DNA of 56,771 bases from Candidatus Rokuibacteriota bacterium (GTDB lineage: Bacteria > Methylomirabilota > Methylomirabilia > Rokubacteriales > CSP1-6): assembly GCA_040902295.1 (NCBI GenBank), contig JBBDXO010000308.1, positions 1-56,771 of the forward strand. The letters are read 5' to 3'. The notes beneath the pieces are model-generated. The model was not told where the DNA came from, searched no databases, and saw nothing but the letters and a program-made list of their open reading frames with translations. Both the position numbers and the translations under genes were made by a program. Shown here piece by piece: positions 4,015-20,433 of the stretch (position 1 is its first letter; each line of letters opens with the position of its first letter).

Positions 4015-4377
4015 ATGGCGAAGGTGATGGTGGTCGATGACGCGGTGTCGGAGCTCAAGCTGATGGAAGCGATCCTCAAAGGCGCCGGTCATCAGGTCGT
4101 CTCCTTCGTCGACGGCGATGAGCTCGAGGACAAGTGCACGAAGGAGCGCCCCGACCTCGTCCTCCTCGACATCGTGATGCCCAAGCGCAACGGGTACGAG
4201 ATCCTCCGCTCCCTCAAGAAGGACGCGCGCACGCGCGCGACCCCGGTGGTGCTCGTGAGCTCGAAGAACCAGGAGAGCGATCGCGTGTGGGGCAAGCGGC
4301 AGGGCGCCGACGACTACCTGCCGAAGCCCTTCACCTCGGACCAGCTCCTCAGCATGGTGGGGCGATTTGTTCGCTGA
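4015..4377 (+). CDS. cheY: CheY/PilH-like single-domain response regulator
   Basis: MAKVMVVDDAVSELK, DLVLLDIVMPKRNGYE, PVVLVSSK, DDYLPKPF. ATG 4015 is preceded by AAGGAGG. The upstream part of track ORF 3934-4377 is leader sequence. Confidence 0.85.
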   Translation: MAKVMVVDDAVSELKLMEAILKGAGHQVVSFVDGDELEDKCTKERPDLVLLDIVMPKRNGYEILRSLKKDARTRATPVVLVSSKNQESDRVWGKRQGADDYLPKPFTSDQLLSMVGRFVR

Positions 4378-4888
4378 CGCCGTCGCCGATGCCGGCGTCG
4401 CGTCCTCCGCCCCCCCCGTACCCACCGAGTCGTTTGCGGAGCGGCGCCGGCGCGCCTGCGTGTTCATGCTCGGGGAGGGCACGTATGCCGTCGACGTGCG
4501 CGACGCGCGCGAGGTGGTGACGCTGGACGGCTATACACCGGTCCCCGGCGCGCCCGCCTCCGTGGTGGGCGTCTTCAACCTTCGCGGCACCGTGCTGCCG
4601 CTCGTGGAAGCCCGGCCGCTGCTGGCGCGCGCGGCCGCGATCCCGGGGCCGGGCACGGCGGCGGTGGTGCTCGCCGCCCGCTCGTGGCGGGCCGCCGTCG
4701 CCATCGACCGCGTGGTGGGTCTCGAGTGGTTCGACGACGCCACGCTGGCGGCCGGCGGCGGCCCTTTCGCCGCGGGCACGTTCGCGCACGGCGACAGCGG
4801 CACCATCACGCTCCTCGACGCCGACGGACTGCTGTCGGCGTTGCGGGAAGCCTGGACGTCCCCCCCCTTCGCCACTCCAGAGGTGTGA
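4367..4888 (+). CDS. cheW: CheW-like coupling protein
   Basis: CheW-fold motifs: FMLGEGTYAVDVRDAREVV, PGAPASVVGVFNLRGTVLPLVE, AVAIDRVVGLE. TTG 4367 overlaps the upstream gene by 11 nt. Confidence 0.8.
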   Translation: MFADAVADAGVASSAPPVPTESFAERRRRACVFMLGEGTYAVDVRDAREVVTLDGYTPVPGAPASVVGVFNLRGTVLPLVEARPLLARAAAIPGPGTAAVVLAARSWRAAVAIDRVVGLEWFDDATLAAGGGPFAAGTFAHGDSGTITLLDADGLLSALREAWTSPPFATPEV

Positions 4889-4890
4889 TC

Positions 4891-6177
4891 ATGCGACGAC
4901 GACGCTTTCTCCAGCTCCTCGGCGGCACGGCGCCCGCATGGCTCGGCACACGCGCGTGGGCGCAGGGCTCCGCGTCCGCCGGACGCGCCACCGGCGTGCC
5001 CGGCGTCACCACCACGGATATCCGGGTGGGCATGAGCGCCGCCTTCAAGAAGACGGCGGCGGGCCTGGGCACGGAGCTGTACCGCGGCGCGCAGGCCTAC
5101 TACGACGACGTGAACGCGCGCGGCGGCGTCAACGGCCGCAACATCTCGGTCATCGCCCTCGACGACGGCTACGAGCCGCTGCCGTGCGTGAAGAACACCA
5201 TCCAGCTCATCGACAAGGAGTCCGTCTTCTTCCTGTCGAATTACGTGGGGACGCCCACCCTCACGCGGGCGCTGCCCGTCATCAAGCGCTACGGCGACGC
5301 GGGCGTCGTGCTCGTGGGCAACTTCACGGGGGCGCAGCCGCAGCGCGAGCCGCCCTACGGCGACTACGTGTTCAACATTCGCGCCTCCTACCGGCAGGAG
5401 ATGATGGCGCTCGTCGACCGCTTCTGGCAGGCAGGCGCGCGCAACTTCGGCGTCTACTACCAGATCGACGCGTACGGCCGCAGCGGGACGGACGGCGTCG
5501 CGCGCGGGCTGGCCCAGCGCGGCGCGAAGATCGTGGCGGAGGCGACGTACCCCCGCGGCGCGAAGTTCGAGCAGGACGTGAGCCCCGCCGTGCACGCGCT
5601 ACGCAAGGCGGGCGCGGACGTGGTCCTGTGCACGGGCGCCTACCAGGGCTGCGGCGCCTTCGTGAAGACGGCGCGCGACCTCGGCTGGCCCGTACCCATC
5701 TCCAACGTGTCGTTCGTCGGCTCCGACGCCATGCTCGCGCTGCTCGTCAAGCACAGCAAGGTCACCGGGCGCGACTACACGCGTGCCCTCGTCAACTCGC
5801 AGGTGGTGCCCAGCTACGACGATCTCAGCCTGCCCGCCGTGGCCGAGTACCGGACGCTGATGGACCGTCACAGCCCGGTCGTCCCCGAGGAGCTGCGCGA
5901 CGCCGGCTATGTCCCGCAGCGCTACAGCTTCATCAGCCTCGAAGGGTTCATCAACGCCAAGGTGGTGGTGGAGGCGCTCAAGCGGACGGGCGCGGCGCCC
6001 ACGCGCGCGGGCTTCCGTCAGGCGCTCGAGTCGCTGCGGGCGTTCGACCTCGGCATCGGCGCCATGCTCACGTTCGGGCCCGAGCGGCACCAGGGTCTCG
6101 ATTCCGTCTACTTCACCCGCATCGAGGGTGATCGCTGGGTTCCGGTCGCCGATTGGACGGCGGCCGTGTCCGCCTAG
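4891..6177 (+). CDS. Tat-signal periplasmic binding protein, type-I (Leu/Ile/Val-binding / AmiC-like) fold
   Basis: MRRRRFLQLLGGTAPAWLGTRAWAQG is a twin-arginine signal. The body resembles LivJ/Peripla_BP_6 proteins (GVNGRNISVIALDDGYEP, FFLSNYVGTPT, GVYYQIDAYGRSG). ATG 4891 lies 2 nt after the cheW stop. It is the tail of track ORF 4684-6177. Confidence 0.8.
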   Translation: MRRRRFLQLLGGTAPAWLGTRAWAQGSASAGRATGVPGVTTTDIRVGMSAAFKKTAAGLGTELYRGAQAYYDDVNARGGVNGRNISVIALDDGYEPLPCVKNTIQLIDKESVFFLSNYVGTPTLTRALPVIKRYGDAGVVLVGNFTGAQPQREPPYGDYVFNIRASYRQEMMALVDRFWQAGARNFGVYYQIDAYGRSGTDGVARGLAQRGAKIVAEATYPRGAKFEQDVSPAVHALRKAGADVVLCTGAYQGCGAFVKTARDLGWPVPISNVSFVGSDAMLALLVKHSKVTGRDYTRALVNSQVVPSYDDLSLPAVAEYRTLMDRHSPVVPEELRDAGYVPQRYSFISLEGFINAKVVVEALKRTGAAPTRAGFRQALESLRAFDLGIGAMLTFGPERHQGLDSVYFTRIEGDRWVPVADWTAAVSA

Positions 6178-6189
6178 GGGAGAGGGACC

Positions 6190-7962
6190 ATGAAGAAGCC
6201 GCGCGCACGTTTCGGACTGCTGCCGAAGATCATCCTGTTCCTGGTCGCCGTGCTCATCCCGCTCGCCGCCGTCACGTGGTACGTCTCGGTGCGGACGCTG
6301 AGCGAGCGGATGACCGAGGAGTTCACCTCCAAGGGCACCGCCATCGCCAACAGCCTCGCGAGCTCGGGGGTGGACCTCGTGCTCACGCGCGACGCCTCCA
6401 CGGTGCAGGCGCTCGTCGACCAGTTCGTCTCCATCAGCGGCGTCGCCTACGTCATGGTGTACGACCCGCAGAACACGCTCATCGCGCACACCTTCCACCC
6501 CCTGGTGCCGGTGGGGCTGCTCGAGAAGAACCTGGTTCCCGGCGACGCCGCCAAGCAGGTGCGCGACATCGTGTACGAGCATCCGGTGACGGCGGTGCCG
6601 CAGCACATCATCGACATCGGCGTGCCCATGCTGGGCGGCCAGCTGGGGACGGTCCGTGTCGGCATGGACCGCTCGATCATCTCCGCTGCCGCCGCCCAGT
6701 CCGGCTGGTACCTCTTCGCCGTCTTCGGCGGCGTCGCCGTCCTCGCGGTGGTGGCGGGCGCCGTCTTCGCGCGCCGGGTGACGAAGCCCGTGGGCGACAT
6801 CGTCCGCATCGCGCAGCAGGTGGGCCGCGGCGATCTCTCGGAGACCCTCAGCCTCCGCCGGCGCGACGAGATCGGGCAGCTCGCGGACACCTTCAACGAG
6901 GCCGTGGTGCGGCTGCGCTCGCAGGTGCTCACGGAGACCGAGCGCGACGAGGAGCGGGCCCGGCGCGAGGCGCTGCAGAAGAACATCACCGCCTTCCTCG
7001 ACACCGTCATGGAGATCTCCCAGGGCGACCTTCGCCGGCGCGGCGAGGTGACGCCGGACGTCCTCGGCAACGTGGTGGACTCGATCAACGTCATGGTGGA
7101 AGAGATCGCCTCCACCCTCGGCGACGTCCGCCACGCCGCCCTCCAGGTGGCGTCCAGCGCGACGGACATGATCGGCGCTACCGAGCAGATGGCCGAGGGC
7201 GCCGTGTCGCAGTCACGCGAGGCCACCACCATCAGCCGCGAGCTGGAGACGATGACGAAGTCCGTGCGCCAGGTCGCGCACAGCGCCGCCTCCTCCGCCG
7301 TCGCCTCCCGCAAGGCGGTGGAGGCCGCGCGCAAGGGTGACGCGGCGGTGCGCGACAGCCTGGGCGGCATGCAGAAGATCCGCAGCGAGGTGCAGGTCAT
7401 CTCCAAGAAGATCAAGGGCCTCGGCGACCGCTCGCTGGAGATCTCCGAGATCGTCAACACCATCGAGGAGATCGCCTCCCATACGAACCTGCTCGCGCTC
7501 AACGCGGCCATCGAGGCGGCGGGCGCGGGCGAGGCGGGGGTGCGGTTCGCCGTCGTCGCCGACGAGATCCGCAAGCTCGCCGAGCGCGCCGCGAAGGCGA
7601 CGAAGGAGATCGCGGGTCTCGTGCGCACGGTGCAGACGGAGACGCACGAAGCGGTCATCGCCATGGAAGACGGCACCCGGGAGGTGGAAGCGGGCTACCA
7701 GGTCACCATCCGCGCCGAGGAAAGCCTCAAGGAGATCGCCGACGTGTCCGAATCGTCGGCCGAGATGGCGGAGAAGATCTCGGACGCCACCCGCGACCAG
7801 GTGCGCGGCGCCGAGGGTGTGACGACGGCCATGACCTCCATCGCCGCCGTCGCCGTGCGCACGGAGCAGGCGGTGCTGCAGACGCGCAAGACCGTCGAAG
7901 ACCTGGTGAAGCTCGCCGACGAGCTCACGCGCAGCCTGTCCCGATTCAAGCTGGCGAGCTGA
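6190..7962 (+). CDS. methyl-accepting chemotaxis protein (TM1, periplasmic domain, TM2, HAMP, signalling domain)
   Basis: TM segments [18 protein letters not shown] and [21 protein letters not shown]; [23 protein letters not shown]...IGQLADTFN; conserved hairpin tip [42 protein letters not shown]. Confidence 0.9.
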
Positions 7963-7977
7963 TCGGCGCGCACGGTC

Positions 7978-10944
7978 ATGGCCGAGCCGGCCGACCAGGA
8001 GCTTCTTCGGTCCATCTTCCTCATGGAAGCATGGGACACGCTCGCCGCCCTCGAGGGCGGCGCCGGCGTCCTCTGCCTCGATCCCGTCACCGCGGAGTCG
8101 GCGGAGGCCCTCTTCGTCGTCACCCACCGGCTCAAGGGCGCCGCCTCGCTCCACGGCTTCCCCGGCGTGGCCGCGCTCGCGGACGACGTCGGCCGCATCC
8201 TCGAGAGCCTGCCCGCCGCCGAGGCCCCCGAGCGCGACGGAGCGGCCCGCCGCATCGCCACCCTCGTCACCCGCCTCAAGACCGCCCTCGACACCATCGC
8301 CGCCACGGGCACCGACGGCATCGACACCGAGGACACCACCACCACCACCACCAACACCATCAACGGTCGAACGGCGTGGGGGGAAATGGGGGGGCCGTCC
8401 AGCCCCCCCATTGTGAACGATCGCGAGGGGGGGCCGTCCAGCCCCCCCATTGTGAACGATCGCGAGGGCGACCCCGTGCGGGTCGAGCTGCACACATTCT
8501 TTACCGACAACGCGGACGTGCTGTCCTACTTCGCGCCCGAGGCGTCGGAGCACCTGGACGCCATGGGCACCGCCTTGCTCGCGCTGCAGAGCGGCGGCGA
8601 TGCCGACGACATCGACATGCTCTTTCGCGCCGTCCACACGCTCAAGGGCGCCGCGTACGTGGTGGGGTGCCGGCGCGTGGGCGAGGTGGCCCACCGGATC
8701 GAGGACGTCCTCGTGGAAGCGCGCGACGGCGCCCTCGTCATGACCGCGCCCATGATCGAGAGCGTCTTCACCGCCATGGACGTCATGCGGCTGATGCTCG
8801 GCATGAGCGCCGATACCTCCGCCAACATGACGGCGCGGTCGGAGGCGGCCCTCGCCGCGCTCGCGGAGTCGTTCGCGAGCGCGCCCGCACCGCCGGTGAC
8901 CGCCCCCGTGGTCGTCGTCTCCGAGGCAGCGCCCTCCTCCCTCGTGCCCGGCCCTCCGCGAGAGGCGCGCGCGCATCCGGCGCCGGGGGCGCCGGCGCCC
9001 GAGCGCGGCGGCCGCCAGACCATTCGCGTGGGTCTCGACCGCCTCGACTCGCTGATGGATCTGGTGGGCGAGATGGTGATCGCGCGCAGCCGCCTCGAGC
9101 GCCGGCTCGCCGAGCTGGAGCGCGTGAGCGGCACGCTCTTCGCGAGCCGCGCGCGGATGCTGCAGGCGGTGGGCGAGTTCGAGCGCAAGCATCTTGACGC
9201 CCGGCTGCCCGGCACCGACGGCGCCGCCCTGCCCGCGGCGCCCGAGCCCTCGCTGCCCACGGCGTTGTCGGTGTCGGAGCTGTTCGCGGAGCTGGAGTTC
9301 GACCGCTACGACGACTTCAACATCTTCGCGCGGCGCGCGGGCGAGATCTCGTCCGACCTCTCCGAGGTGCACGCGGAGCTGGCCGGCCTCACGCGCGTGA
9401 TCGGCGACGATCTCGCCCACGTGCATCGGCTCACGGGCGGGCTGCGCGACGAGATCGCCCGCGCGCGGCTGGTGCCCATCGGCACCCTCTTCACCCGCTT
9501 CGTGCGCCAGGGCGGGGAGGCCGCCCGCGCCGCCGGCAAGAGCGTGCGGGTGGAGACGGAAGGCGATGCGGTCGAGCTCGACACCGGCATCATCGAGCAG
9601 ATCGTGGATCCCCTGCTGCACCTCGTGCAGAACGCGGTGGTCCACGGCATCGAGCCCGCCGACGAACGCCGCGCGCGGGGCAAGCCCGCGGAGGGGCGGC
9701 TCACGCTGGGCGCCCGCCACCAGGGCGGGTTCGTGTACATCGAGGTGAGGGACGACGGCCGCGGCATCGACGCCGACATCCTCCGAGGGCGCGCGGTGGC
9801 GCAGCGCTTCGTCGACGGCGGCGCGGCGGCGGCCCTCAGCGAGCGCGAGGCGCTCGAGCTCATCTTCCTGCCGGGCTTCAGCACGGCCGCGGCCGTCACG
9901 GCGGCCTCCGGCCGCGGTGTGGGCATGGACGTCGTGCGCACCAACGTCCGCCGGCTCAACGGCGACATCGAGGTGCAGACGGACCTTGGCGCGGGGACGC
10001 GCTTCATCATCAAGCTGCCGCTCACCGTGCTCGTCTCCGAAGCCCTGCTCGTTCGCGTGGCGGGCGAGACGCTGGCGGTGCCGCTGAACGCCGTGCAGAC
10101 GGTGCTCACCGTGGACGCGGCGGATGTGCGCAGGGACTCCGACGGGGAGTCGATCGTGGTGGACGGCGACGGCGTCCACCTCGTGCCGCTCGATCGCGTG
10201 CTCCTGCTCCCCATGCCGCCGCGCGGCCCCCACGCCCACGTGCTGGTGCTGCGCGCGCCGGGCGGCCCCCTCGCGGTCGAGGTCGACGAGATCCTCCGCA
10301 AGGAAGAGATGGTCATCAAGCCGCTCGGACCCTTTCTCGACGGCGTGGGGCCCTTCGCGGGCGCCACCATCGGGTCGGACGGCCGGGTCATGCTGCTGCT
10401 GGATGCGGTCAAGCTCTCCGAATCAAAGGCGGCGGCGACGGCGGCGCGGGCAGCCCCCGAGCCACCCCCGCCCGGTGCCGGGTCCCCCCTCGCTGGGAGC
10501 ACTCGCGCCACCGTCGCCGCCGCCAAGGTTCCGCCGGGTGCCACCGCGGGCCGCCTCGCGCGGGCGCGCGTGCTGCTGGTCGACGACTCGATCAGCGTGC
10601 GGCGCTTCGTGGGACGGATGCTGACGGTGGGCGGCTTCGAGGTCGTGACCGCCAACGACGGGGCCGAGGCCATCAGCAGGGTCGCGGAGGGCCGCTTCGA
10701 CGTCGTCATCACCGATCTCGAGATGCCGCGCGTGAACGGCTACGAGCTCATCGAGGACCTGCGCCGGCGCTCGTCGACGCGCCACGTGCCGGTCATCGTG
10801 CTCACCACGCGGGCGGGTGACAAGCACGTGTCGCTGGCGCGGCGCCTCGGCGTCGAGCACTACGTCACCAAGCCCGTGGACGAGACGACGTTCGTGCGCC
10901 TCGTCGGCTCCCTCGCGTCGCCTCCGGCGGACGCTGCCCGGTGA
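7978..10944 (+). CDS. cheA: hybrid CheA-type histidine kinase: Hpt, Hpt, dimerisation, HATPase, CheW-like, REC
   Basis: Two Hpt boxes (VVTHRLKGAASLHG; AVHTLKGAAYVVG); dimerisation region IRVGLDRLDSLMDLVGEMVI; N-box HLVQNAVVHGIE; G-boxes VRDDGRGID and GRGVGMDVV; CheW-like region LLVRVAGETLAVPLNAV; C-terminal receiver VLLVDDS...VVITDLEMPRVNGYE...VIVLTTR...YVTKP. Confidence 0.9.
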   Translation: MAEPADQELLRSIFLMEAWDTLAALEGGAGVLCLDPVTAESAEALFVVTHRLKGAASLHGFPGVAALADDVGRILESLPAAEAPERDGAARRIATLVTRLKTALDTIAATGTDGIDTEDTTTTTTNTINGRTAWGEMGGPSSPPIVNDREGGPSSPPIVNDREGDPVRVELHTFFTDNADVLSYFAPEASEHLDAMGTALLALQSGGDADDIDMLFRAVHTLKGAAYVVGCRRVGEVAHRIEDVLVEARDGALVMTAPMIESVFTAMDVMRLMLGMSADTSANMTARSEAALAALAESFASAPAPPVTAPVVVVSEAAPSSLVPGPPREARAHPAPGAPAPERGGRQTIRVGLDRLDSLMDLVGEMVIARSRLERRLAELERVSGTLFASRARMLQAVGEFERKHLDARLPGTDGAALPAAPEPSLPTALSVSELFAELEFDRYDDFNIFARRAGEISSDLSEVHAELAGLTRVIGDDLAHVHRLTGGLRDEIARARLVPIGTLFTRFVRQGGEAARAAGKSVRVETEGDAVELDTGIIEQIVDPLLHLVQNAVVHGIEPADERRARGKPAEGRLTLGARHQGGFVYIEVRDDGRGIDADILRGRAVAQRFVDGGAAAALSEREALELIFLPGFSTAAAVTAASGRGVGMDVVRTNVRRLNGDIEVQTDLGAGTRFIIKLPLTVLVSEALLVRVAGETLAVPLNAVQTVLTVDAADVRRDSDGESIVVDGDGVHLVPLDRVLLLPMPPRGPHAHVLVLRAPGGPLAVEVDEILRKEEMVIKPLGPFLDGVGPFAGATIGSDGRVMLLLDAVKLSESKAAATAARAAPEPPPPGAGSPLAGSTRATVAAAKVPPGATAGRLARARVLLVDDSISVRRFVGRMLTVGGFEVVTANDGAEAISRVAEGRFDVVITDLEMPRVNGYELIEDLRRRSSTRHVPVIVLTTRAGDKHVSLARRLGVEHYVTKPVDETTFVRLVGSLASPPADAAR
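8388..8465 (+). repeat. perfect 2 x 39-bp in-frame tandem duplication inside cheA linker
   Basis: Bases 8388-8426 equal 8427-8465 (gggggggccgtccagcccccccattgtgaacgatcgcga), and the next 3 nt (ggg) start a third unit. The repeat encodes GGPSSPPIVNDRE twice between Hpt1 and Hpt2. Confidence 0.95.
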
Positions 10945-11909
10945 AGATCCTCGTCGTCGATCCGGACCGCGCGCGGGCCAACGATCTCCAGGGCCTGCTC
11001 GCGGCGAGCGGCGCCGAGGTGTCGGTGGCGTCCAGCGGATCGTTCGCGCTCACGATGCTCGAATGGAACAAGCAGGACGTCATCGTGAGCCACGCCCGCA
11101 TCGACGACATGGACGGCCACGAGCTGTGCGGCATCGTGCGGAGCGATCCGTCGACGGAGGGCGTGCGCTTCGTCCTCATCGCCTCCGCCGAGCAGGCCAG
11201 CCCGGCCGAGACGTCGGCGGCCGGGATCGACCTGGTGCTGCCGTCGAGCATGACCGGCTCGATGATGGTGCCGCTCGTGGTCCAGCTCGTGCGGCACGAT
11301 CTCGGCGGCACGCCCGCGCACGATCCTCTCCCCTCGGCGCTCCCGGCGCCGGCTCCCGTGAGGGCGCCCCGCGCGGTGCCGCCGCCTGCGGCCGTACCCC
11401 CACCCCCCCCGGCGCCCGCGCCGGTGGTCGTGCCGAAGGCCGCCCCGGCGCCGCCGGTGCCCGTGCCCGCCGCCGCCGCGTCGCCGCCGGCACCCCGCGC
11501 GCCCGGGACGAACGGTGGCGCCGGCACCCTGCGGCTGAGCGATCTCGACGCCGTGGGCGCCGAGGGCGCGGTGAAGACGTTCCAGGGCTCGCTGGGCGTC
11601 ATGGAGATGGAGGAGCTCGTGCAGGCGATCTCGATGGGGGGCAAGAGCGGCCGCCTGCTGCTCGTGCTGGCGTCCGGCGGCGGCATGATCGTCTTCATGA
11701 GCGGCCGCGTCGTGCACGCGGAGTTCGGAGCGAAGTCCGGCGAGCCCGCCTTCGAAGCGCTCGTGACCACCGCGCACCGCGAGCGTTCGGGAAAGTTCTG
11801 CTTCATTCCCGGCGACGGGCGCGCGTCCTCCAGCGCCGCCGCGACCATCTCGAAGAGCACCGACCAATTGCTGCTCAGCGTCGCTACGGCGATGGACGAG
11901 GAGAGGTAA
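10941..11909 (+). CDS. response regulator: N-terminal REC, Pro/Ala linker, C-terminal DUF4388 (PATAN-like) domain
   Basis: REC region KILVVDPD...DVIVSHARIDDMDGHE...FVLIAS. Linker PAPAPVRAPRAVPPPAAVPPPPPAPAP. The C-terminal segment FQGSLGVMEMEELVQAISMGGKSGRLLLV...GMIVFMSGRVVHAEFG...GEPAFEALV matches the DUF4388 pattern as I recall it. GTG 10941 overlaps the cheA stop (GTGA). Confidence 0.75.
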   Translation: MKILVVDPDRARANDLQGLLAASGAEVSVASSGSFALTMLEWNKQDVIVSHARIDDMDGHELCGIVRSDPSTEGVRFVLIASAEQASPAETSAAGIDLVLPSSMTGSMMVPLVVQLVRHDLGGTPAHDPLPSALPAPAPVRAPRAVPPPAAVPPPPPAPAPVVVPKAAPAPPVPVPAAAASPPAPRAPGTNGGAGTLRLSDLDAVGAEGAVKTFQGSLGVMEMEELVQAISMGGKSGRLLLVLASGGGMIVFMSGRVVHAEFGAKSGEPAFEALVTTAHRERSGKFCFIPGDGRASSSAAATISKSTDQLLLSVATAMDEER

Positions 11910-11912
11910 CCC

Positions 11913-12767
11913 ATGCCCAAGGTGCTGGTGATCGACGACAGCGTGAGCGTGCGGAAAGTGGTGGAGCGGGCGCTCGCAGGCCGCCAGATCGACGTCGTCA
12001 CCGCCGCCTCCGGCGCGGAAGCCATCGACCGGCTGGAGAAGGAGGAGCCCGACATCGTCGTGTGCGACGTGGTCATGCCCGACCGCGACGGCTACGACAT
12101 CTGCGAGTTCGTGAAGAGCCACGCCCGTCTCGGGCTGACTCCGGTGCTCCTCATGTCGGGCATCGTCAACGACGAGGTCCGTCAGAAGGCGGCGGCGGCG
12201 CGGTGCGATGGCGTGCTCGCCAAGCCCTTCGCCGGCGAAGATCTCGTTCGCCATCTGGAAGCGCTTCTGCCGTCGAAGCTGAAGGTGGCCGCGCCGGCGG
12301 CGGCGGCCGCCCCCGCGCCGCCGGCCGCTGTGCCCGCTCCGGCGCGGGCCGCTGCTGCCGTCAGCATGCCCGTGCCCGCGTCCGCGACGAGCCCGCCCGT
12401 TGCACCGGAGGTCGCGGGCACGGCGCGGTCGATCCTGGTCACGATCGGCGCCATGGAAGGCGTGCAATGGGCCGTCCTCGCCGATCGCGAGGGCTACCTG
12501 ATCGAGGCCACCGCCGAATCGGGCGTGGACGCCGAAGTGGCGGGAGCGCTCAGCGCCTGCCTGGCGGAGTCCTCGGACGGGCTCGGCCGGGAGCTCGGAC
12601 GCGGAAACCTGCAGGGCATGATCCTGGAATACGAAAAGGGCATGGTGGTGCTGCACGGCGTGGGCGCGGGCGCCCTGCTCGCCATCGGCCTCTCGGAGCC
12701 CTCCGCCCTCGGCAAGGTCCGCTACTACGCCAAGAAGGCGCTCGCCGAGCTCGCACGAGTCATGTGA
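11913..12767 (+). CDS. response regulator: N-terminal REC, Pro/Ala linker, C-terminal Roadblock/LC7 (MglB-like) domain
   Basis: REC region KVLVIDDSVSVRK...DIVVCDVVMPDRDGYD...VLLMSG...GVLAKPF. The C-terminal ~110 aa (ILVTIGAMEGVQWAVLADREGYLIEATAESGVDAEVAGALSA...MILEYEKGMVVLHGVGAGALLAIGLSEPSALGKVRYYAKKALAEL) has the Roadblock alpha-beta-alpha pattern. Confidence 0.8.
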   Translation: MPKVLVIDDSVSVRKVVERALAGRQIDVVTAASGAEAIDRLEKEEPDIVVCDVVMPDRDGYDICEFVKSHARLGLTPVLLMSGIVNDEVRQKAAAARCDGVLAKPFAGEDLVRHLEALLPSKLKVAAPAAAAAPAPPAAVPAPARAAAAVSMPVPASATSPPVAPEVAGTARSILVTIGAMEGVQWAVLADREGYLIEATAESGVDAEVAGALSACLAESSDGLGRELGRGNLQGMILEYEKGMVVLHGVGAGALLAIGLSEPSALGKVRYYAKKALAELARVM

Positions 12768-12769
12768 CC

Positions 12770-14719
12770 ATGGCGCGCCACCGCCCGTCGCCGCCGCACG
12801 CCGGCCTGCGCGCGCTCGCCACCGCTTTCGCATGCGTCGCCCTCACGGCCGCCGTGCTGCGCTTCGACGTCGCCGGCGGGCTCACCGTGCCCGCGTGGAC
12901 GGCTGTCCTGCCCCTCCTCGTGTACGTGGCGCTCGCCGCCATCACGCTGGGGCGCGCTTCGCTGCGGCCTCGCCTGGTCTGGCTGGCCGGCGCGTGCGCC
13001 ACCCACGCGCTCGTCGTCGTCGCCACCGCCGCCGTCGTGGCCGCCGCCGGCGCCGACTCGCTGGCGACGGCGCTGCCGAGCGCGATCGTGGAGTCTCCGC
13101 TTGCGACCGTCATCTTCCTCGCCGGCGTTCCCCTCACGCTGCTGCCGTTTCGCGGTCGCCTGTTGCCGCGGCCCGCCGCGCGGGCGTCCTCCCCGAGGCC
13201 GGCCGCTCCGGCGCCGCCGCGGACGGGGCGGCCGGCGAGCGCGCCGGTGGCGGGGGAAACTCCGTTCGCGCGCGAGGCGCGGCGCCGGATGGCGGTGGCC
13301 GCGCCGCCGCCGGTGCAGGCCCCCGCCGCCGCCGCCGCCGTGCCCTCCCCGGCGCCGGTGCTTGTCCTGCGGCCGCCTGCGCGTCCGGTGGTGGCACCGA
13401 TGCCGGTCCGCGCCGCCGCCGAGCCGACGGTGACCATTGCCTTCGAGCGGATCGCCGCGCAGCTGCCCGCCGATGTCTTTCTGCTGCCGATGGACCGGCT
13501 CGCGGAGAGCATGCGCTCGCCGCACGAGCTGCTCGTGCCGCGCAGCCTCGTCGTGGCGCAGCTCGCCGAAGGGCAGGTCGAGGTGGCGTGGGCGCTCGTG
13601 GAGGACCAGTTCCCGACGCTGGCCTTCGCGCTCGAGGCCTCGGAGATCCGCAGGCGGTATCCGGAGCTGCGCCTGCTGCTGCCGCTCGACCTCGTCGTGT
13701 CGCAGCTTCCGCCGGCCGTCTTCTCGGCCGCCGCGCCCGTCGCCGAGCTCGGCGGCCTCGATCGCTACCCGGCGCCGTTTCAACCCTCCTCCGGCGCCAC
13801 CGTTCCCGCCGTCCCGCCCGCTTCGCGCCCGGCGACCCCGGCCGCCGCCCCGCCGCCGGTGGCGCCGGCCGCGCCTGCACCGTCGGTGACGCTGGCACCG
13901 GCGATCGTCGAGGCGCCGGTCGTCCCGCGTCCGCCGGCGGCGGCGCCCGCGAGCGCGGCGCCCGCCGTGGCCGTGACGGCCGTGCCCCCGTCGGAGGCGG
14001 CGCTGCTCGCGCAGGGGCAACGGCTGGCGACGCGCCTGGTGGCCTTCGGGCCGCTGGAGGTCGGGGTCCGGCGCCTGAACGGGACGACCGTGCTGTCGCT
14101 GGTGACGGCCGGGCGGCCGCACGAGGCGATCGAGCGCGCCGCGGCGCGGTGCGCGCCGCTGCTCGCCGCGGCGCACCAGGTGACCATCCACACCGACCGC
14201 GTGTCGATGCTCCTCACGCGCGTGTGCGGCGGCGTGCTGGTGATCGGGCTCCGGGCGGGCGCGCCGCTGGCGATGCTCGAGATCCTGGTGGTCCGCGCGT
14301 GCGGTGGGGAGCCGGCGGGGGGGGCGCCTGCAGGCGTCCCCCGTGGCCTGGCCGCCGCCGACGTCGACGGGCGGGTGGCCGCGCTGGGGGGTGCGCTGCA
14401 GGGCTTTGGTCCCGTGGTGCCGGCGGCATTCGTGGACCGTGCGGGCGGGCTCGACGTGTACGTCTTCTCGACGGCGGCGGAGGCCCAGGTCGCGGGTGAG
14501 GAAGCCCGGGTGGTCTGGCAGGCGCTCGTGCACGAGGGTGAGCGCGACCTCGGGCGGGCGCGGTCGGTGGTGCTGCGCGAGGGCCCGCGACGGACGGTCG
14601 TGTATCCGGTGGCCGCCGCACGGCGGCCCGCGATGCTGGCGGCGGCGGGCGTGCTCGCGTTGCCGGGCCTCGCCTACCGGCAGGCGGCGCGGGCGGCCGA
14701 GCGCCTGGCCGCGGTGTGA
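12770..14719 (+). CDS. 649-aa membrane-anchored Pro/Ala-rich protein with two Roadblock-like C-terminal segments
   Basis: ATG 12770 lies 2 nt after the upstream stop; it is the tail of track ORF 10817-14719. There are about four N-terminal TM segments and long AP-rich tracts. A central region carries the repeated motifs AQLPADVF and SQLPPAVF. Two C-terminal ~100-aa blocks (LATRLVAFGPLEVGVRRLNGTTVLSLV...VLVIGLRAGAPLAMLEILVVRA, and LGGALQGFGPVVPAAFVDRAGGLDVYVF...AMLAAAGVLALPGLAYRQAARAAERL) read like Roadblock folds; this is an inference. Confidence 0.6.
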   Translation: MARHRPSPPHAGLRALATAFACVALTAAVLRFDVAGGLTVPAWTAVLPLLVYVALAAITLGRASLRPRLVWLAGACATHALVVVATAAVVAAAGADSLATALPSAIVESPLATVIFLAGVPLTLLPFRGRLLPRPAARASSPRPAAPAPPRTGRPASAPVAGETPFAREARRRMAVAAPPPVQAPAAAAAVPSPAPVLVLRPPARPVVAPMPVRAAAEPTVTIAFERIAAQLPADVFLLPMDRLAESMRSPHELLVPRSLVVAQLAEGQVEVAWALVEDQFPTLAFALEASEIRRRYPELRLLLPLDLVVSQLPPAVFSAAAPVAELGGLDRYPAPFQPSSGATVPAVPPASRPATPAAAPPPVAPAAPAPSVTLAPAIVEAPVVPRPPAAAPASAAPAVAVTAVPPSEAALLAQGQRLATRLVAFGPLEVGVRRLNGTTVLSLVTAGRPHEAIERAAARCAPLLAAAHQVTIHTDRVSMLLTRVCGGVLVIGLRAGAPLAMLEILVVRACGGEPAGGAPAGVPRGLAAADVDGRVAALGGALQGFGPVVPAAFVDRAGGLDVYVFSTAAEAQVAGEEARVVWQALVHEGERDLGRARSVVLREGPRRTVVYPVAAARRPAMLAAAGVLALPGLAYRQAARAAERLAAV

Positions 14720-14720
14720 G

Positions 14721-15329
14721 ATGTCGATCATCAACTATGCGGCCAAGGTCATCAACTTCAAGATCGTGTATTACGGCCCCGGGATGGCGGGCAAGACGGC
14801 GAACCTCCAGTACGTGCACCGCTGCCTGCCCGACGCCAACAAGGGCCACATGATCTCGCTCGCCGCCGGCGACGACCGCACGCTCTTCTTCGATTTCCTG
14901 CCCGTGACCGCCCTCAGCGTGCGGGGCTTCACGACGAAGTTCCAGCTCTACACGGTGCCGGGCCAGAGCCACTACAACATGACGCGCAAGCTCGTCCTGC
15001 GCGGGGTGGACGGCGTCGTCTTCGTGGCGGACTCGCAGTGGGACCGGCTGCGCGAGAACGTGGAGAGCTTCCGCAACCTCGGCGACAACCTCAGGGAGTA
15101 CCAGCTCGATCTTGCCGCGACGCCGTACGTCGTCCAGTACAACAAGCGCGATCTCGGCAACGTGGCTCCCTGCGAGTACCTGGAGTACATGCTGAACCGG
15201 GGCGCCCGGCGGGCGCCGTCGTTCGAAGCGGTCGCGCTCGAGGGCAAGGGCGTGTTCGACACGCTGAATACCGTGTCGCGCATGGTCCTCGTCAGGGAGT
15301 TCGACGAGCGGCCGGAGGGAGCGTCCTGA
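14721..15329 (+). CDS. mglA: MglA, Ras-like small GTPase of the gliding/polarity family
   Basis: Near-colinear with Myxococcus MglA as I recall it: MSIINYAAKVINFKIVYYGPGMAGKTANLQY (P-loop), DRTLFFDFLP (intrinsic Arg), YTVPGQ (Thr in place of the DxxGQ Asp), GVDGVVFVADSQ, QYNKRDL (G4). 202 aa. ATG lies 1 nt after the upstream stop. Confidence 0.92.
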   Translation: MSIINYAAKVINFKIVYYGPGMAGKTANLQYVHRCLPDANKGHMISLAAGDDRTLFFDFLPVTALSVRGFTTKFQLYTVPGQSHYNMTRKLVLRGVDGVVFVADSQWDRLRENVESFRNLGDNLREYQLDLAATPYVVQYNKRDLGNVAPCEYLEYMLNRGARRAPSFEAVALEGKGVFDTLNTVSRMVLVREFDERPEGAS

Positions 15330-15811
15330 TGCGACACGATGTGGTCATTCACGAGAGCGATGCGGCGGGCATCGACGCCGTGCTGAGCCGCTTCCTCGCC
15401 GACTCGGGGGCGAGCGCCGCTCTCCTCATCGACCGCAGCGGCCAGCCGCTGGCGCAGTGCGGCACCTCGCCGGCGCCGGACACGGCGTCCATGGGCGCGC
15501 TCGCCGCGGGCGCCTTCAGCGCCACCGCCGCCCTCGCGCGGCTGCTCGGGGAAAGCGAGTTCTCCGTCCTCTTCCACGAGGGCAAGCACGAGAGCCTGCA
15601 CGTGTCCACCGTGGACGACTTCACGATTCTCCTCGCGGTCTTCGGCGACCACACCACCGTCGGCATGGTGCGGCTCTTTGCGCGCGAGACCAGCGCGTCG
15701 ATCGGCGTCATCCTCGAGGCCACGCGCGCGCGGCCGCGACGGACGGGCGCTCTCGCGGCGCCGCTCACGGCTGAAGAAGCCGGGCGCGCGATCGATCATC
15801 GTCCCGCGTAA
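15329..15811 (+). CDS. mglB: MglB, Roadblock/LC7-type GTPase-activating partner of MglA
   Basis: LLGESEFSVLFHEGKHESLHVSTVDD...TTVGMVRLFARETSASI parallels Myxococcus MglB (LIGENEFPNQFHEGAKDSLYMTIVG...TSLGLVRLRIKKASDEL). ATG 15329 shares one base with the mglA stop (TGATG). 160 aa. Confidence 0.85.
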   Translation: MRHDVVIHESDAAGIDAVLSRFLADSGASAALLIDRSGQPLAQCGTSPAPDTASMGALAAGAFSATAALARLLGESEFSVLFHEGKHESLHVSTVDDFTILLAVFGDHTTVGMVRLFARETSASIGVILEATRARPRRTGALAAPLTAEEAGRAIDHRPA

Positions 15812-15856
15812 GCGGCGGCCGCCGCCGTCCGGGCGCCGGCCGGGGGAGCGGCCGCG

Positions 15857-16684
15857 ATGCCGCTGCTGAGCCGGATGTGGGCGTCCCGCCGCGCCCTCAC
15901 GCTGGTGGAAGCGTTCCGCCGTGCCGACCGGTTCCGGCGCGAGGGCCGGCTGCCGGAGGCCATGGCGATGGTCGGGTACGGGCTGGGCCTCGATCCCGAC
16001 AACATCACGGGGCACCTGCTCGCGGCCTACCTTCATGCGGCCGGCCGCGCGATGGCGCCGGCGAAGGCGGAGTTTCAGTGGGTGCTTGGCCGCGATCCTC
16101 ACCACGCCCGAGCCCTTCTCGGCCTCGCCCGCATCGCGCTCGAGGAGGGCCAGCCCACGGGCTGCCGCGAGCTCCTCGGCCGGGCCCTGCGCTTCTACCC
16201 CGAGTTTCCGGAGGCGCAGGCCCTGCTGGGGGCCGTGACCGCGCTGGCCGCCCCCGCGCCGCCCGCCGTCGCCCCCGTCACCCTCGACCGGCTGCGCCTG
16301 CCCGACCACGGCCGGTCGCTCGTGGTCGCCCGCCACGACGGCGCGCTGGTGGGGACGGGCGACGGTGACGACGACGAGGCGACGCGCGCGGCCGCCCTCG
16401 CCCGCATCCTGGTGGTGGCGGCGGCGGCGCTCACGCGCGGAGGCTTCGGCGCCGTGCGCCGTGCCATCGTGGAGGACCGCGAGGAGGCCGTCTTCGCGCG
16501 CACGGACGGCGCCATGCTGGTCGCGCTCACGCTGCCACGCACGACGGCGATCACGCAGGGGCTGCTGGAGGTCAACCGGTTGTGGGCGGGAGTCCGGCAG
16601 GTCGACGCACCGGCGTCGTCTTCTGCGCCGGGGACGGCTGCGACGACCGCGCCCGAGAGCGCGTCGGACAGGAGAGCATCATGA
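15857..16684 (+). CDS. TPR-repeat N-terminal domain fused to a Roadblock-like C-terminal domain
   Basis: TPR-like helices: EAMAMVGYGLGLDPDNITGHLLAAYLHAAGR, AKAEFQWVLGRDPHHARALLGLARIALEEGQ, GRALRFYPEFPEAQALLG. The C-terminal half (SLVVARHDGALVGTG...AALARILVVAAAALTRGGFGAVRRAIVEDREEAVFARTDGAMLVALTL) is Roadblock-like. GGGGGAG SD lies before ATG 15857. Confidence 0.6.
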   Translation: MPLLSRMWASRRALTLVEAFRRADRFRREGRLPEAMAMVGYGLGLDPDNITGHLLAAYLHAAGRAMAPAKAEFQWVLGRDPHHARALLGLARIALEEGQPTGCRELLGRALRFYPEFPEAQALLGAVTALAAPAPPAVAPVTLDRLRLPDHGRSLVVARHDGALVGTGDGDDDEATRAAALARILVVAAAALTRGGFGAVRRAIVEDREEAVFARTDGAMLVALTLPRTTAITQGLLEVNRLWAGVRQVDAPASSSAPGTAATTAPESASDRRAS

Positions 16685-17130
16685 CGCCATCCCGACTCGT
16701 GCAATCGCCGGCCCCCCGGCTCACGCTGTCGCTCGAGAGTGAGACGGGCGCCCGCGGCCGTCACGTCTGCGACGTGGTGGAGCGGCTGGTGGACCTGCAC
16801 CTCGTCCGCGGCGCGATGATCGTGGCGCCCGACGGGTTCGTGATCGCCGCCCAGCTCCCGCCTGCGCTCGCCGTGGAGCCGCTCGCCGCGCTGGCGGCGA
16901 CGCTCGGCCGCGAGCTGGAGATCAACGCCGCCCGCCTCGGTGGCACGCCGTTCCAGACGGCGCTCTTCTCGGCCGACGACGGGACGCTGTGCCTGGGGAC
17001 GACGCGCATCGGCTTCGTGGTGGTGCTCGCCGAGCCGCACGCCAACCTCCACACCATCCGCGCCGCCGTTCGGGACGCCGTCGCGCGTATCGAAGCGGTG
17101 TGGCAGGAGGCGGCGCCGCCCCCCGCCTGA
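16681..17130 (+). CDS. stand-alone Roadblock/LC7 domain protein
   Basis: VVERLVDLHLVRGAMIVAPDGFVIAAQLPPALAVEPLAALAATLGRELE...QTALFSADDGTLCLGTTRIGFVVVLAEPHANLHTIR. ATG 16681 overlaps the upstream stop (ATGA). 149 aa. Confidence 0.7.
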   Translation: MTPSRLVQSPAPRLTLSLESETGARGRHVCDVVERLVDLHLVRGAMIVAPDGFVIAAQLPPALAVEPLAALAATLGRELEINAARLGGTPFQTALFSADDGTLCLGTTRIGFVVVLAEPHANLHTIRAAVRDAVARIEAVWQEAAPPPA

Positions 17131-17132
17131 GC

Positions 17133-19693
<2,561 letters not shown>

Positions 19694-19712
19694 GGCAGGA
19701 GCACGGCGGCGC

Positions 19713-20433
19713 TCACGGCGTGCCGTCGCTCTGCAGGGAAGCCACGAGGGTGGCCACGGCGGCGGCCGGCTCCGGCGCGCCCGTGATCGGCCGGCCGATG
19801 ACCAGGTAATCAGCGCCGGCGCGCACGGCGGCGGCGGCCGTCGCCACGCGCGCCTGGTCGTCGTCGGTGGCGGCGGGCCGGATGCCCGGCGTGACGATGA
19901 CCCAGGCGCTGCCGAGCGCGCGGCGCAGGAGCGTGATCTCGTGCGGGGAGGCGACGCAGCCATCGAGGCCGGCGGCGCGCGCGTGGTCGGCCAGGCGCAG
20001 CACGTGCGCGGGGACGTTGCCGTGCACGCCGAGCTCCGTCGCCAGCGTGCGGCCATCGAGGCTCGTGAGCACGGTGACCCCCAGGCACAGCGGGCGCGGG
20101 AGCTTGAACTCCGCCGCCGCCTCCGCCGCCGCCCCGGGGGGGGCGCGCATCATCGCGCGGCCGCCGCCTGCGTGCACGTTGAGCATGAAGACGCCGAGGC
20201 GGGTGGCCTCCCGCACCGCGCCCGCCACCGTGTTCGGGATGTCGTGGAACTTGAGATCGAGAAAGACGCGCACGCCGCGCTTGAGGGCCGCCTCCACGGC
20301 GGCGGGGCCGGCGGCGGTGAAGAGCTGGGAGCCCACCTTGACCCCGGTGACGGCGCCCGCGAGCCGGTCGAGGAGAGCCTCCGCATCCGTCAGGGACTCC
20401 ACGTCCAGCGCGACCAGGATGCGGTCGCGGGCG

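Follow-up and report, generated by a model that had tools for sequence, protein, structure and literature searches.

RomR consists of a receiver, a proline-rich intrinsically disordered region and a C-terminal helix, the last of which is the binding site for the Roadblock homodimer MglC; MglC in turn binds MglB, and in Myxococcus this last contact is disrupted by MglA-GTP (PMC10329633, PMC12719032). Chemosensory output is delivered to the MglA/MglB/RomR polarity module by FrzX and FrzZ "by unknown mechanisms" (PMC10329633), and the tetratricopeptide repeat (TPR) proteins SgmX and Bd2492 are MglA-GTP effectors (PMC7519303). In addition, PATAN genes are neighbours of mglA and mglB (PMC4316618), and PATAN regulators bind PilB (bioRxiv 10.1101/2021.06.11.447907). 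Proteins combining a receiver with a Roadblock-type domain are also on record: Response_reg + Robl_LC7 fusions are present in Pfam, five of them having been found by Wuichet & Søgaard-Andersen in 2014 (PMC4316618), and archaeal regulators whose receiver is joined to an output domain related to Roadblock (REC-NitrOD3) were listed by Galperin et al. in 2018 (PMC5847659). Here we describe a protein of this kind, hereafter REC-Robl, encoded on the forward strand of contig JBBDXO010000308.1 of a Candidatus Rokuibacteriota bacterium (assembly GCA_040902295.1); "the window" denotes the whole analysed stretch of 56,771 nucleotides, which is the entire contig of this metagenome-assembled genome.

The architecture is already catalogued and widespread, and the fusion itself is no discovery; our literature searches on REC-Roadblock regulators returned census mentions only and no functional study. 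What is added here is the family-wide Che/PATAN context, a pseudo-receiver partner and an analogy with the RomR–MglC pair. We propose, with a probability of about 0.5, that REC-Robl is the terminal output regulator of a PATAN chemosensory pathway of the type IV pilus (Tfp)-like kind, and that its Roadblock dimer would dock onto the local Roadblock/MglAB module. The assignment of this hybrid-CheA/PATAN system to the Tfp-like class is presumed.

Results

REC-Robl joins a CheY-like receiver to a Roadblock/LC7 domain

The gene and its parts are located as follows, with the supporting evidence in brackets.

11913..12767, + strand: REC-Robl gene, 284 aa, receiver + disordered linker + Roadblock/LC7 domain (open reading frame (ORF), Pfam, homologues)
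11913..12272, + strand: CheY-like receiver, residues 1-120 (Pfam, CheY alignment, 36 orthologues, Foldseek)
12288..12416, + strand: Pro/Ala-rich intrinsically disordered linker, residues 126-168 (predicted local distance difference test (pLDDT), orthologue alignment)
12423..12764, + strand: Roadblock/LC7 domain, residues 171-284, alpha-beta-beta-alpha-beta-beta-beta-alpha (Pfam, PDB profile, AlphaFold2, Foldseek)

The ORF runs from the ATG at 11913 to the TGA at 12765-12767, with a Shine-Dalgarno-like motif (GGAGAGG) about 7 nt upstream of the start codon. Its GC content at third codon positions, 0.89, is typical for the genes of the contig, which has a GC content of 65-76% per 2-kb window and about 71% overall.

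As for the N-terminal part, Response_reg (PF00072) matches residues 4-115 with E=5.4e-23 and 81.7 bits, against a gathering score of 30.2. Alignment to E. coli CheY places D8/D9, D52, S82 and K104 at the positions of D12/D13, D57, T87 and K109, and these five residues of REC-Robl are invariant across 36 aligned orthologues. The CheY reference shows its canonical numbering in this alignment. The phospho-acceptor D52 sits in VVCDVVMPDRDG, its codon being 12066-12068. In the AlphaFold2 model (mean pLDDT 77), residues 1-120 form a (beta-alpha)5 receiver, which Foldseek superposes on CheY4 (4h60) with a TM-score of 0.91 and a probability of 1.00. By fold, Pfam score and complete active site, this domain is a member of the CheY-like response regulator superfamily.

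The C-terminal part is matched by Robl_LC7 (PF03259) over residues 178-258 (E=3.1e-9, 36.9 bits, gathering score 23) and contains the conserved motifs GVQWAxxxDREG, ALSACLAESSDGLGRELGRG and LGKVRY. When its profile was compared with the PDB, the matches included Asgard Roadblock proteins (2e-7), Thermus thermophilus MglB (2e-6), CvnB5 (4e-5) and Myxococcus xanthus MglB (8e-4); no MglC structure was found at E<=0.01 in this search. Residues 171-283 are modelled by AlphaFold2 as an alpha-beta-beta-alpha-beta-beta-beta-alpha domain, which superposes on Roadblock3 (9jue) with a TM-score of 0.86 and a root-mean-square deviation of 1.5 A, and on MglB (6hjm, 6h5b and 3t12) with TM-scores of 0.71-0.83, the Foldseek probability being 1.00 in all cases. 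The Pfam score and the superposable fold place the C-terminus of REC-Robl in the Roadblock/LC7 superfamily. The domain is probably dimeric. Among orthologues, conservation extends to beta3 (LEY) and to alpha2; the latter is the most conserved surface of the family, and its counterpart helix contacts the GTPase in MglB.

The two domains are separated by a linker of about 45 residues (126-168), modelled with pLDDT below 50. Among the aligned orthologues this segment (alignment columns ~130-305) is hypervariable in both sequence and length, ranging from ~20 to ~150 residues. Because the linker is disordered and variable in length, a rigid allosteric coupling from the receiver to the Roadblock dimer interface is unlikely.

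These data can be set against a preliminary description of the stretch. The receiver with a complete phosphorylation site which it had proposed is borne out by Pfam, the CheY alignment, the 36 orthologues and the AlphaFold2/Foldseek results, the conserved Asp being in place in a proper alignment. Likewise, the Ala/Pro linker is seen in the model, and the C-terminal Roadblock domain that follows it is found by Pfam, PDB profile, AlphaFold2 and Foldseek alike. Direct phosphorylation control of Roadblock dimerisation, which the same description had envisaged, is on the contrary unlikely in the form of rigid allostery across a disordered segment of such variable length.

REC-Robl lies in one operon with hybrid CheA, MglA and MglB

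REC-Robl is one of 12 genes on the + strand, from cheY to the last Roadblock gene, which are separated by overlaps or by gaps of at most 45 nt and form one operon. The other members, in order, are the following.

4015..4377, + strand: stand-alone CheY-like regulator, first operon gene, intact active site (Pfam E=1e-25, alignment; syntenic in all related loci)
4367..4888, + strand: CheW-like coupling protein, start codon uncertain (ORF; matches CheW genes of related loci)
4891..6177, + strand: periplasmic binding protein, Peripla_BP_6 (Pfam E=1.5e-47, conserved position)
6190..7962, + strand: methyl-accepting chemotaxis protein (MCP), sCache_3_2-HAMP-MCPsignal (Pfam)
7978..10944, + strand: hybrid CheA with two Hpt domains, dimerisation, HATPase and CheW domains and an intact C-terminal receiver (Pfam, alignment)
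10941..11909, + strand: pseudo-receiver + PATAN (DUF4388) protein, directly upstream of REC-Robl (Pfam, alignments)
12770..14719, + strand: 649-aa membrane protein between REC-Robl and mglA (AlphaFold2, homologues)
14721..15329, + strand: MglA small GTPase, 202 aa, with the conserved Arg of DRTLFFDF and Gln of TVPGQ (Thermus and Myxococcus MglA matches)
15329..15811, + strand: MglB, 160 aa, with small contact residues (S/A) and a C-terminal extension (M. xanthus MglB match, Pfam, alignment)
15857..16684, + strand: TPR protein with a weakly Roadblock-like C-terminus (TPR_19 1.5e-10)
16681..17130, + strand: fourth Roadblock/LC7 protein, 149 aa, its residues at the A64/G68 positions being bulky (R/I) (Robl_LC7 5.6e-6, alignment)

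The window MglA matches that of T. thermophilus with E=3e-67 and that of M. xanthus with E=3e-63, and the window MglB matches M. xanthus MglB with E=2e-22 and Robl_LC7 with 4.5e-16. In the TPR protein, the C-terminal 150 aa reach Robl_LC7 at E=0.086 only; by analogy, the protein could be an MglA effector of the SgmX/Bd2492 kind. Its gene overlaps that of the fourth Roadblock protein by 4 nt.

The gene order agrees with the preliminary description, which had placed REC-Robl one gene away from cheA and upstream of mglA and mglB with one gene in between. The gene separating it from cheA encodes the PATAN protein, whose N-terminal receiver is without three active-site residues, namely acceptor Asp, second acidic Asp and Lys, in all lineages covered (L001, L002, L006, L021 and L023-L025, Meiothermus among them); the acceptor position is taken by His, Arg, Thr or Gly, and L024 has an offset Asp instead. 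As judged from their active sites, the receivers of the operon that can be phosphorylated are those of CheY, CheA and REC-Robl. Since the receiver of the PATAN protein is degenerate, REC-Robl would be the sole multidomain regulator of the operon open to phosphorylation by CheA. To this extent the view of REC-Robl as the most economical candidate for a CheA–MglA connection stands; it is weakened by the fact that CheY (4015-4377) and the CheA receiver appear equally phosphorylatable.

On the input side, the binding protein at 4891-6177 is LivJ-like, carries a Tat signal and is encoded directly upstream of the sCache_3_2 MCP, a position that it also occupies in L021, L025 and L027-L029. Its conservation across distant lineages suggests ligand sensing via a binding protein–chemoreceptor pair. 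Neither cheB nor cheR was seen in the Che cluster of the window, and the remainder of the window holds housekeeping and sensor-kinase genes, with no pil or gliding genes among the scanned ORFs.

Synteny ties the family to a hybrid-CheA/PATAN system

Related loci were compared in two sets. The first comprises the Rokubacteria-type loci (L001-L007, L021 and L022) and the second eight distant loci (L023-L029 and L031; 28-37% identity), among them Meiothermus (L023) and a locus with a Deinococcus-type RecJ (L024). Two orphan family members bring the distant set to 10.

A CheA-REC gene and a pseudo-receiver gene precede REC-Robl in 8/8 Rokubacteria-type loci with upstream sequence, in addition to the window, and in 8/10 distant members. 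Where upstream sequence is available, the adjoining gene is in most cases a recognisable PATAN gene (L003-L005, L021-L023, L027-L029 and L031); the others have either a homologous upstream gene lacking a PatA_N match or a tblastn match that covers the pseudo-receiver only. The order in the distant loci is CheY-CheW-(periplasmic binding protein)-MCP(s)-CheA-REC-(CheW)-PATAN-type gene-REC-Robl, with PATAN detected in most, and REC-Robl closes the series; only in L031, a short contig, does a further + strand gene come after it. The two orphans have neither Che nor PATAN neighbours.

Downstream of REC-Robl, the membrane protein gene is present in every Rokubacteria-type locus with downstream sequence, followed by the MglB-like and fourth Roadblock genes wherever the contig extends that far. 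The linkage to mglA noted in the preliminary description for the window holds for 5/7 Rokubacteria-type clusters (window, L003, L004, L006 and L021) and fails in L005 and L007 and, over the up to 10 kb of downstream sequence covered (less at contig ends), in the eight distant loci. In L005 (10072-12721) and L007 (1152-3906), REC-Robl and the membrane protein gene are followed by the MglB-like Roadblock and the fourth Roadblock genes, with no mglA and no TPR gene, and the MglB-like protein is short (134 aa) and without C-terminal extension. In L021, a PilB-like ATPase (MshEN + T2SSE; 14540-16288) is encoded between mglB and the TPR gene. At the same position there is a 2.2-kb gap in L003 (10889-13133) and L004 (8345-10586); in the window only 45 nt are found, and the ATPase gene is absent. 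As a side observation, the Meiothermus locus L023 carries, about 8 kb downstream of REC-Robl (17177-20344), a Ras/Arf-like GTPase of 164 aa with 22% identity to the window MglA, flanked by an unannotated 436-aa protein and a TPR protein; this arrangement may be coincidental.

In conclusion, the deep, family-wide association of REC-Robl is with a hybrid-CheA/PATAN chemosensory system, and its linkage to MglA is lineage-specific. Since L005/L007 lack mglA and the distant loci show none in the downstream sequence covered, the ancestral function of REC-Robl need not involve a co-encoded MglA.

The same distribution bears on an explanation that dispenses with MglA. REC-Robl might supply, in trans, the phosphorylatable receiver that the PATAN protein lacks, the pair regulating the type IV pilus ATPase or localising the chemosensory array; or it might be a phosphate sink whose Roadblock domain serves dimerisation or scaffolding. 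This account fits the family-wide synteny better than an MglA-based one does: CheA-REC and an upstream PATAN-type gene are found in 16/18 related loci with upstream sequence, PATAN itself being detected in most, and none of the lineages covered has an intact receiver in the PATAN protein. Moreover, PATAN response regulators bind PilB1 in Synechocystis (bioRxiv 10.1101/2021.06.11.447907), and a histidine kinase may have a Roadblock protein as its partner, the conservon pair CvnA/CvnB being an example (PMC4316618); CvnB5 is one of the PDB matches of the Roadblock domain (4e-5). However, comparison of PATAN and Roadblock profiles with hhalign gave a probability of 0.1% and thus no sequence relationship pointing to heterodimerisation; the two orphans are without Che/PATAN neighbours; and the continuation of the Rokubacterial operon into mglA/mglB, which this account leaves unexplained, argues for an at least lineage-specific GTPase link. 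On this evidence we regard a role confined to the Che system or the pilus motor as rather unlikely. The idea that PATAN is a cryptic Roadblock domain heterodimerising with REC-Robl is not supported, given the same hhalign value and the lack of any meaningful PDB relative.

The Roadblock domain is set apart from MglB

The C-terminal domain had been called MglB-like in the preliminary description, a likeness that holds for the fold and for the whole-length alignment: the alignment with Thermus MglB spans the entire domain and takes in the LGKV motif in helix 3. It does not hold for the features that follow. The invariant E219 and G223 of REC-Robl occupy the positions of the MglB contact residues A64/G68 in M. 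xanthus (Mx) and A68/A72 in T. thermophilus (Tt), where Arg at both residues lowers GTPase-activating protein (GAP) activity (PMC7519303). The corresponding alpha2 residues are S and A in the window MglB and R and I in the fourth Roadblock protein, the latter pair resembling the reduced-GAP MglB mutant. REC-Robl stops at the end of helix 3, and the window MglB runs about 30 residues further. The NCBIfam MglB model NF052242 has a cut-off of 200 bits; REC-Robl reaches 29.2, and the genuine MglB of the operon, at 69.8, falls short of it as well. BLASTP of the Roadblock domain against the window MglB and the fourth Roadblock protein returned nothing, and a recent copy of either gene was rejected as its origin.

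Because of E219, the absence of a C-terminal extension, the 29 bits and the lack of BLASTP similarity to its neighbours, REC-Robl is not filed as an MglB. At the sequence level it differs from MglB in overall similarity, in the small contact residues and in the C-terminal extension, and it is probably not itself a GAP.

This comparison also bears on the idea that the Roadblock domain binds MglA directly or heterodimerises with MglB, acting as a phosphorylation-controlled GAP, guanine nucleotide exchange factor or co-GAP. The MglB likeness over the whole length, with the helix 3 motif LGKV(R/K) in common with Thermus MglB, is in keeping with it, as are the conservation of alpha2, the GTPase-contacting helix of MglB, the match of G223 to Mx G68 and the presence of mglA one gene away in 5/7 Rokubacteria-type loci. 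However, Glu is invariant at the position of Mx A64/Tt A68, where the Arg substitution is part of the change that cuts GAP activity (PMC7519303), the MglB-like C-terminal extension is missing, the MglB model score is low, and a bona fide MglB with both small residues is already encoded in the operon. In addition, mglA is absent from L005, L007 and all distant loci, and a disordered, variable linker cannot pass on a rigid conformational change. Taken together, these data make direct MglA binding or MglB heterodimerisation unlikely.

The membrane protein between REC-Robl and MglA

The 649-aa protein encoded at 12770-14719 has no Pfam and no NCBIfam match. Its 47 homologues, as far as they carry an organism name, belong to Rokuibacteriota/Methylomirabilota, and one of them is named Roadblock/LC7/MglB by JGI. 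The AlphaFold2 model (pLDDT 77) has five transmembrane helices and a disordered region. A 4x(beta-alpha-alpha) repeat domain spans residues 220-318 (motif LPxxxFxLPxxRLxESLxxPH...QLP), and at the C-terminus there are two modules, modelled with pLDDT above 90, whose topology is exactly that of Roadblock. Searches by other means gave little: Robl_LC7 was found in 1/25 family members (E=0.018), whole-chain Foldseek returned meaningless matches to 4-hydroxyphenylpyruvate dioxygenase (HPPD) only, hhalign probabilities with the Roadblock profile of REC-Robl did not exceed 1.7%, and the PDB profile search was negative.

Homologues and assembly integrity

In a search space of 5.8 billion proteins, 1023 homologues of REC-Robl were matched; the best 120 all carry PF00072+PF03259, and many bear the JGI name "CheY-like / Roadblock-LC7-MglB". 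Clustering at 50% gave, in the list inspected, at least ~40 clusters aligned over both domains, down to 33% identity and with REC-REC-Robl variants among them. A profile built from distant members retrieves proteins of cultured Meiothermus (isolate genomes) and of Thermoanaerobaculia, and the nearest genome locus, with 86% identity, is from Rokuibacteriota. NCBIfam holds no family for REC-Robl, for the 649-aa membrane protein or for the fourth Roadblock protein.

Two acidobacterial proteins (L008, 9992-12439; L009, 9992-11005) were rejected as family members, since they match through the receiver alone and consist of a receiver, a long disordered tail and a short C-terminal helix. Their receivers are the closest non-family relatives (36-37% identity, the motif DGYDICEFVK being common), and the long acidic/Pro-rich disordered tail with its short conserved end helix recalls, by analogy, the architecture of RomR.

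That the fusion is an annotation or assembly artefact (missed stop, frameshift) or a chance Pfam match is practically refuted, for although the contig has at least one apparent frameshift (histidine-kinase gene, 17920-17945), the same two-domain ORF is found in more than 1000 proteins of independent assemblies, isolate Meiothermus among them, with both domains strongly conserved around the variable linker, both Pfam matches above the gathering thresholds and AlphaFold2 and Foldseek in agreement with the domain calls.

The frameshifted gene encodes a hybrid kinase (GAF-PAS-HisKA-HATPase-REC; 17133-20056, - strand), convergent with the operon and split into two overlapping ORFs around 17920-17945. 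The alignment with the intact L021 orthologue follows frame -2 down to ~17918; from ~17945 it is in frame -1. The split fits a 1-nt deletion (…ACG AGC TCG ACC… where …ACG CAG CTC GAC CAG… is expected). Either the assembly is wrong here or the gene is a pseudogene.

Discussion

The data presented above are compatible with the following mechanism. The co-operonic hybrid CheA would phosphorylate D52 of the REC-Robl receiver, a transfer that we consider probable. A long flexible Pro/Ala tether would connect this receiver to the putative Roadblock dimer; phosphorylation would then most likely alter the partners of the receiver or the location of the protein, or relieve a tethered auto-inhibition, the Roadblock domain providing constitutive docking. 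In this Rokubacterium, the docking partners of the dimer would be MglB and the 149-aa Roadblock protein, perhaps along with the membrane and TPR proteins. Through this docking, the activity of CheA would come to bias the MglA/MglB polarity switch governing pilus-motor placement, with the TPR protein as a possible MglA effector and PATAN/PilB as the motor-proximal output. For the action of REC-Robl on the MglA/MglB module we see slightly less than an even chance, and the notion that it proceeds through Roadblock–Roadblock docking rather than through direct GTPase contact is tentative and, in our judgement, doubtful.

Several observations weigh against this proposal. The stand-alone CheY and the CheA receiver may carry the main output of the system. 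No mglA or mglB was found in the eight distant loci up to 10 kb downstream (less at contig ends), and mglA is absent from L005 and L007, where the alpha2 motif of REC-Robl is identical. As reported above, BLASTP detects no similarity between the Roadblock domain and either MglB or the fourth Roadblock protein, onto which it would dock. Finally, the Roadblock nature of the C-terminal modules of the membrane protein is a matter of predicted topology and is unconfirmed.

A bolder picture, which we hold to be unlikely, is that of the operon as a "Ragulator-like" stack of Roadblock dimers. In such a stack the membrane protein would be an anchor with a tandem Roadblock pseudo-dimer, joined by MglB, the fourth Roadblock protein, a TPR-Roadblock effector and REC-Robl as the phospho-switchable layer, so that CheA would directly control whether the GAP complex is brought to MglA at the membrane. 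If the stack existed, REC-Robl would unite what RomR and MglC do in a naturally fused protein, and the missing physical link from chemosensory output to the MglA polarity switch would be revealed.

Coming back to the docking proposal, REC-Robl as the link between the chemosensory system and the MglA/MglB switch is plausible but unproven. One transcription unit hard-wires a hybrid CheA, a REC-Roadblock protein and MglA/MglB, with a PilB-like ATPase added in sister loci, and the receiver-tethered Roadblock layer offers a testable hypothesis for the coupling of chemosensing to polarity. The presence of the family in culturable Meiothermus makes genetics and biochemistry feasible. Even without an MglA link, the pseudo-receiver/PATAN protein and REC-Roadblock would constitute a conserved and so far undescribed output pair; the chemosensory class that has it extends over Rokubacteria, Deinococcota and sequences labelled Binatia and Thermoanaerobaculia.

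Several described systems share features with the one reported here. The catalogued Response_reg + Robl_LC7 proteins have the same domain combination, and the window protein belongs to this bacterial group; the earlier catalogue reports give the architecture, without genomic context or function. The NitrOD3 of REC-NitrOD3 is a thaumarchaeal Roadblock-related domain and is set beside REC-Robl by description only. MglB of T. thermophilus (3T12/1J3W) and M. xanthus (6H5B/6HJM) has the fold of the REC-Robl Roadblock core and the LGKV motif and is encoded beside mglA; unlike MglB, REC-Robl is fused to a receiver via a disordered linker, has an invariant Glu at Mx A64/Tt A68 and lacks the C-terminal extension. 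CvnB of the actinobacterial conservon is a Roadblock protein linking two-component signalling with a small, MglA-like GTPase, as proposed here for REC-Robl (CvnB5, E=4e-5); it is, however, a single-domain protein, and its conservon of four genes includes a membrane histidine kinase, with no receiver and no Che system.

The cyanobacterial PixG, PixE and PilG (PatA-type PATAN-REC) belong to Tfp-type operons with a hybrid CheA, a PATAN domain with a receiver and output to PilB (bioRxiv 10.1101/2021.06.11.447907). The window differs in that PATAN has a protein of its own, where an inactive receiver precedes it, in reverse domain order, and the live receiver is encoded by the next gene together with the Roadblock domain. 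FrzX and FrzZ are CheA-phosphorylated receivers presumed to feed MglA/MglB, as proposed here for REC-Robl; unlike it, they consist of receiver domains only and have no Roadblock output.

The nearest parallel understood from experiment is RomR together with MglC. REC-Robl combines in one chain, by analogy, a receiver, a Pro-rich disordered region and a Roadblock domain, beside MglA/MglB and in a chemosensory setting. Of the features of the RomR family, the N-terminal receiver and the Pro-rich disordered region are present in REC-Robl; the Glu-rich helical C-terminus is absent, and a Roadblock domain is found instead. In M. xanthus, RomR and MglC are two proteins joined by the Glu-rich C-terminal helix of RomR, which oligomerises, and their genes lie outside the frz and mglBA operons; the partners of the MglC homodimer are RomR and MglB, and not MglA. 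We regard the likeness as an architectural analogy only: what RomR and MglC do as partners, REC-Robl may do as a single chain.

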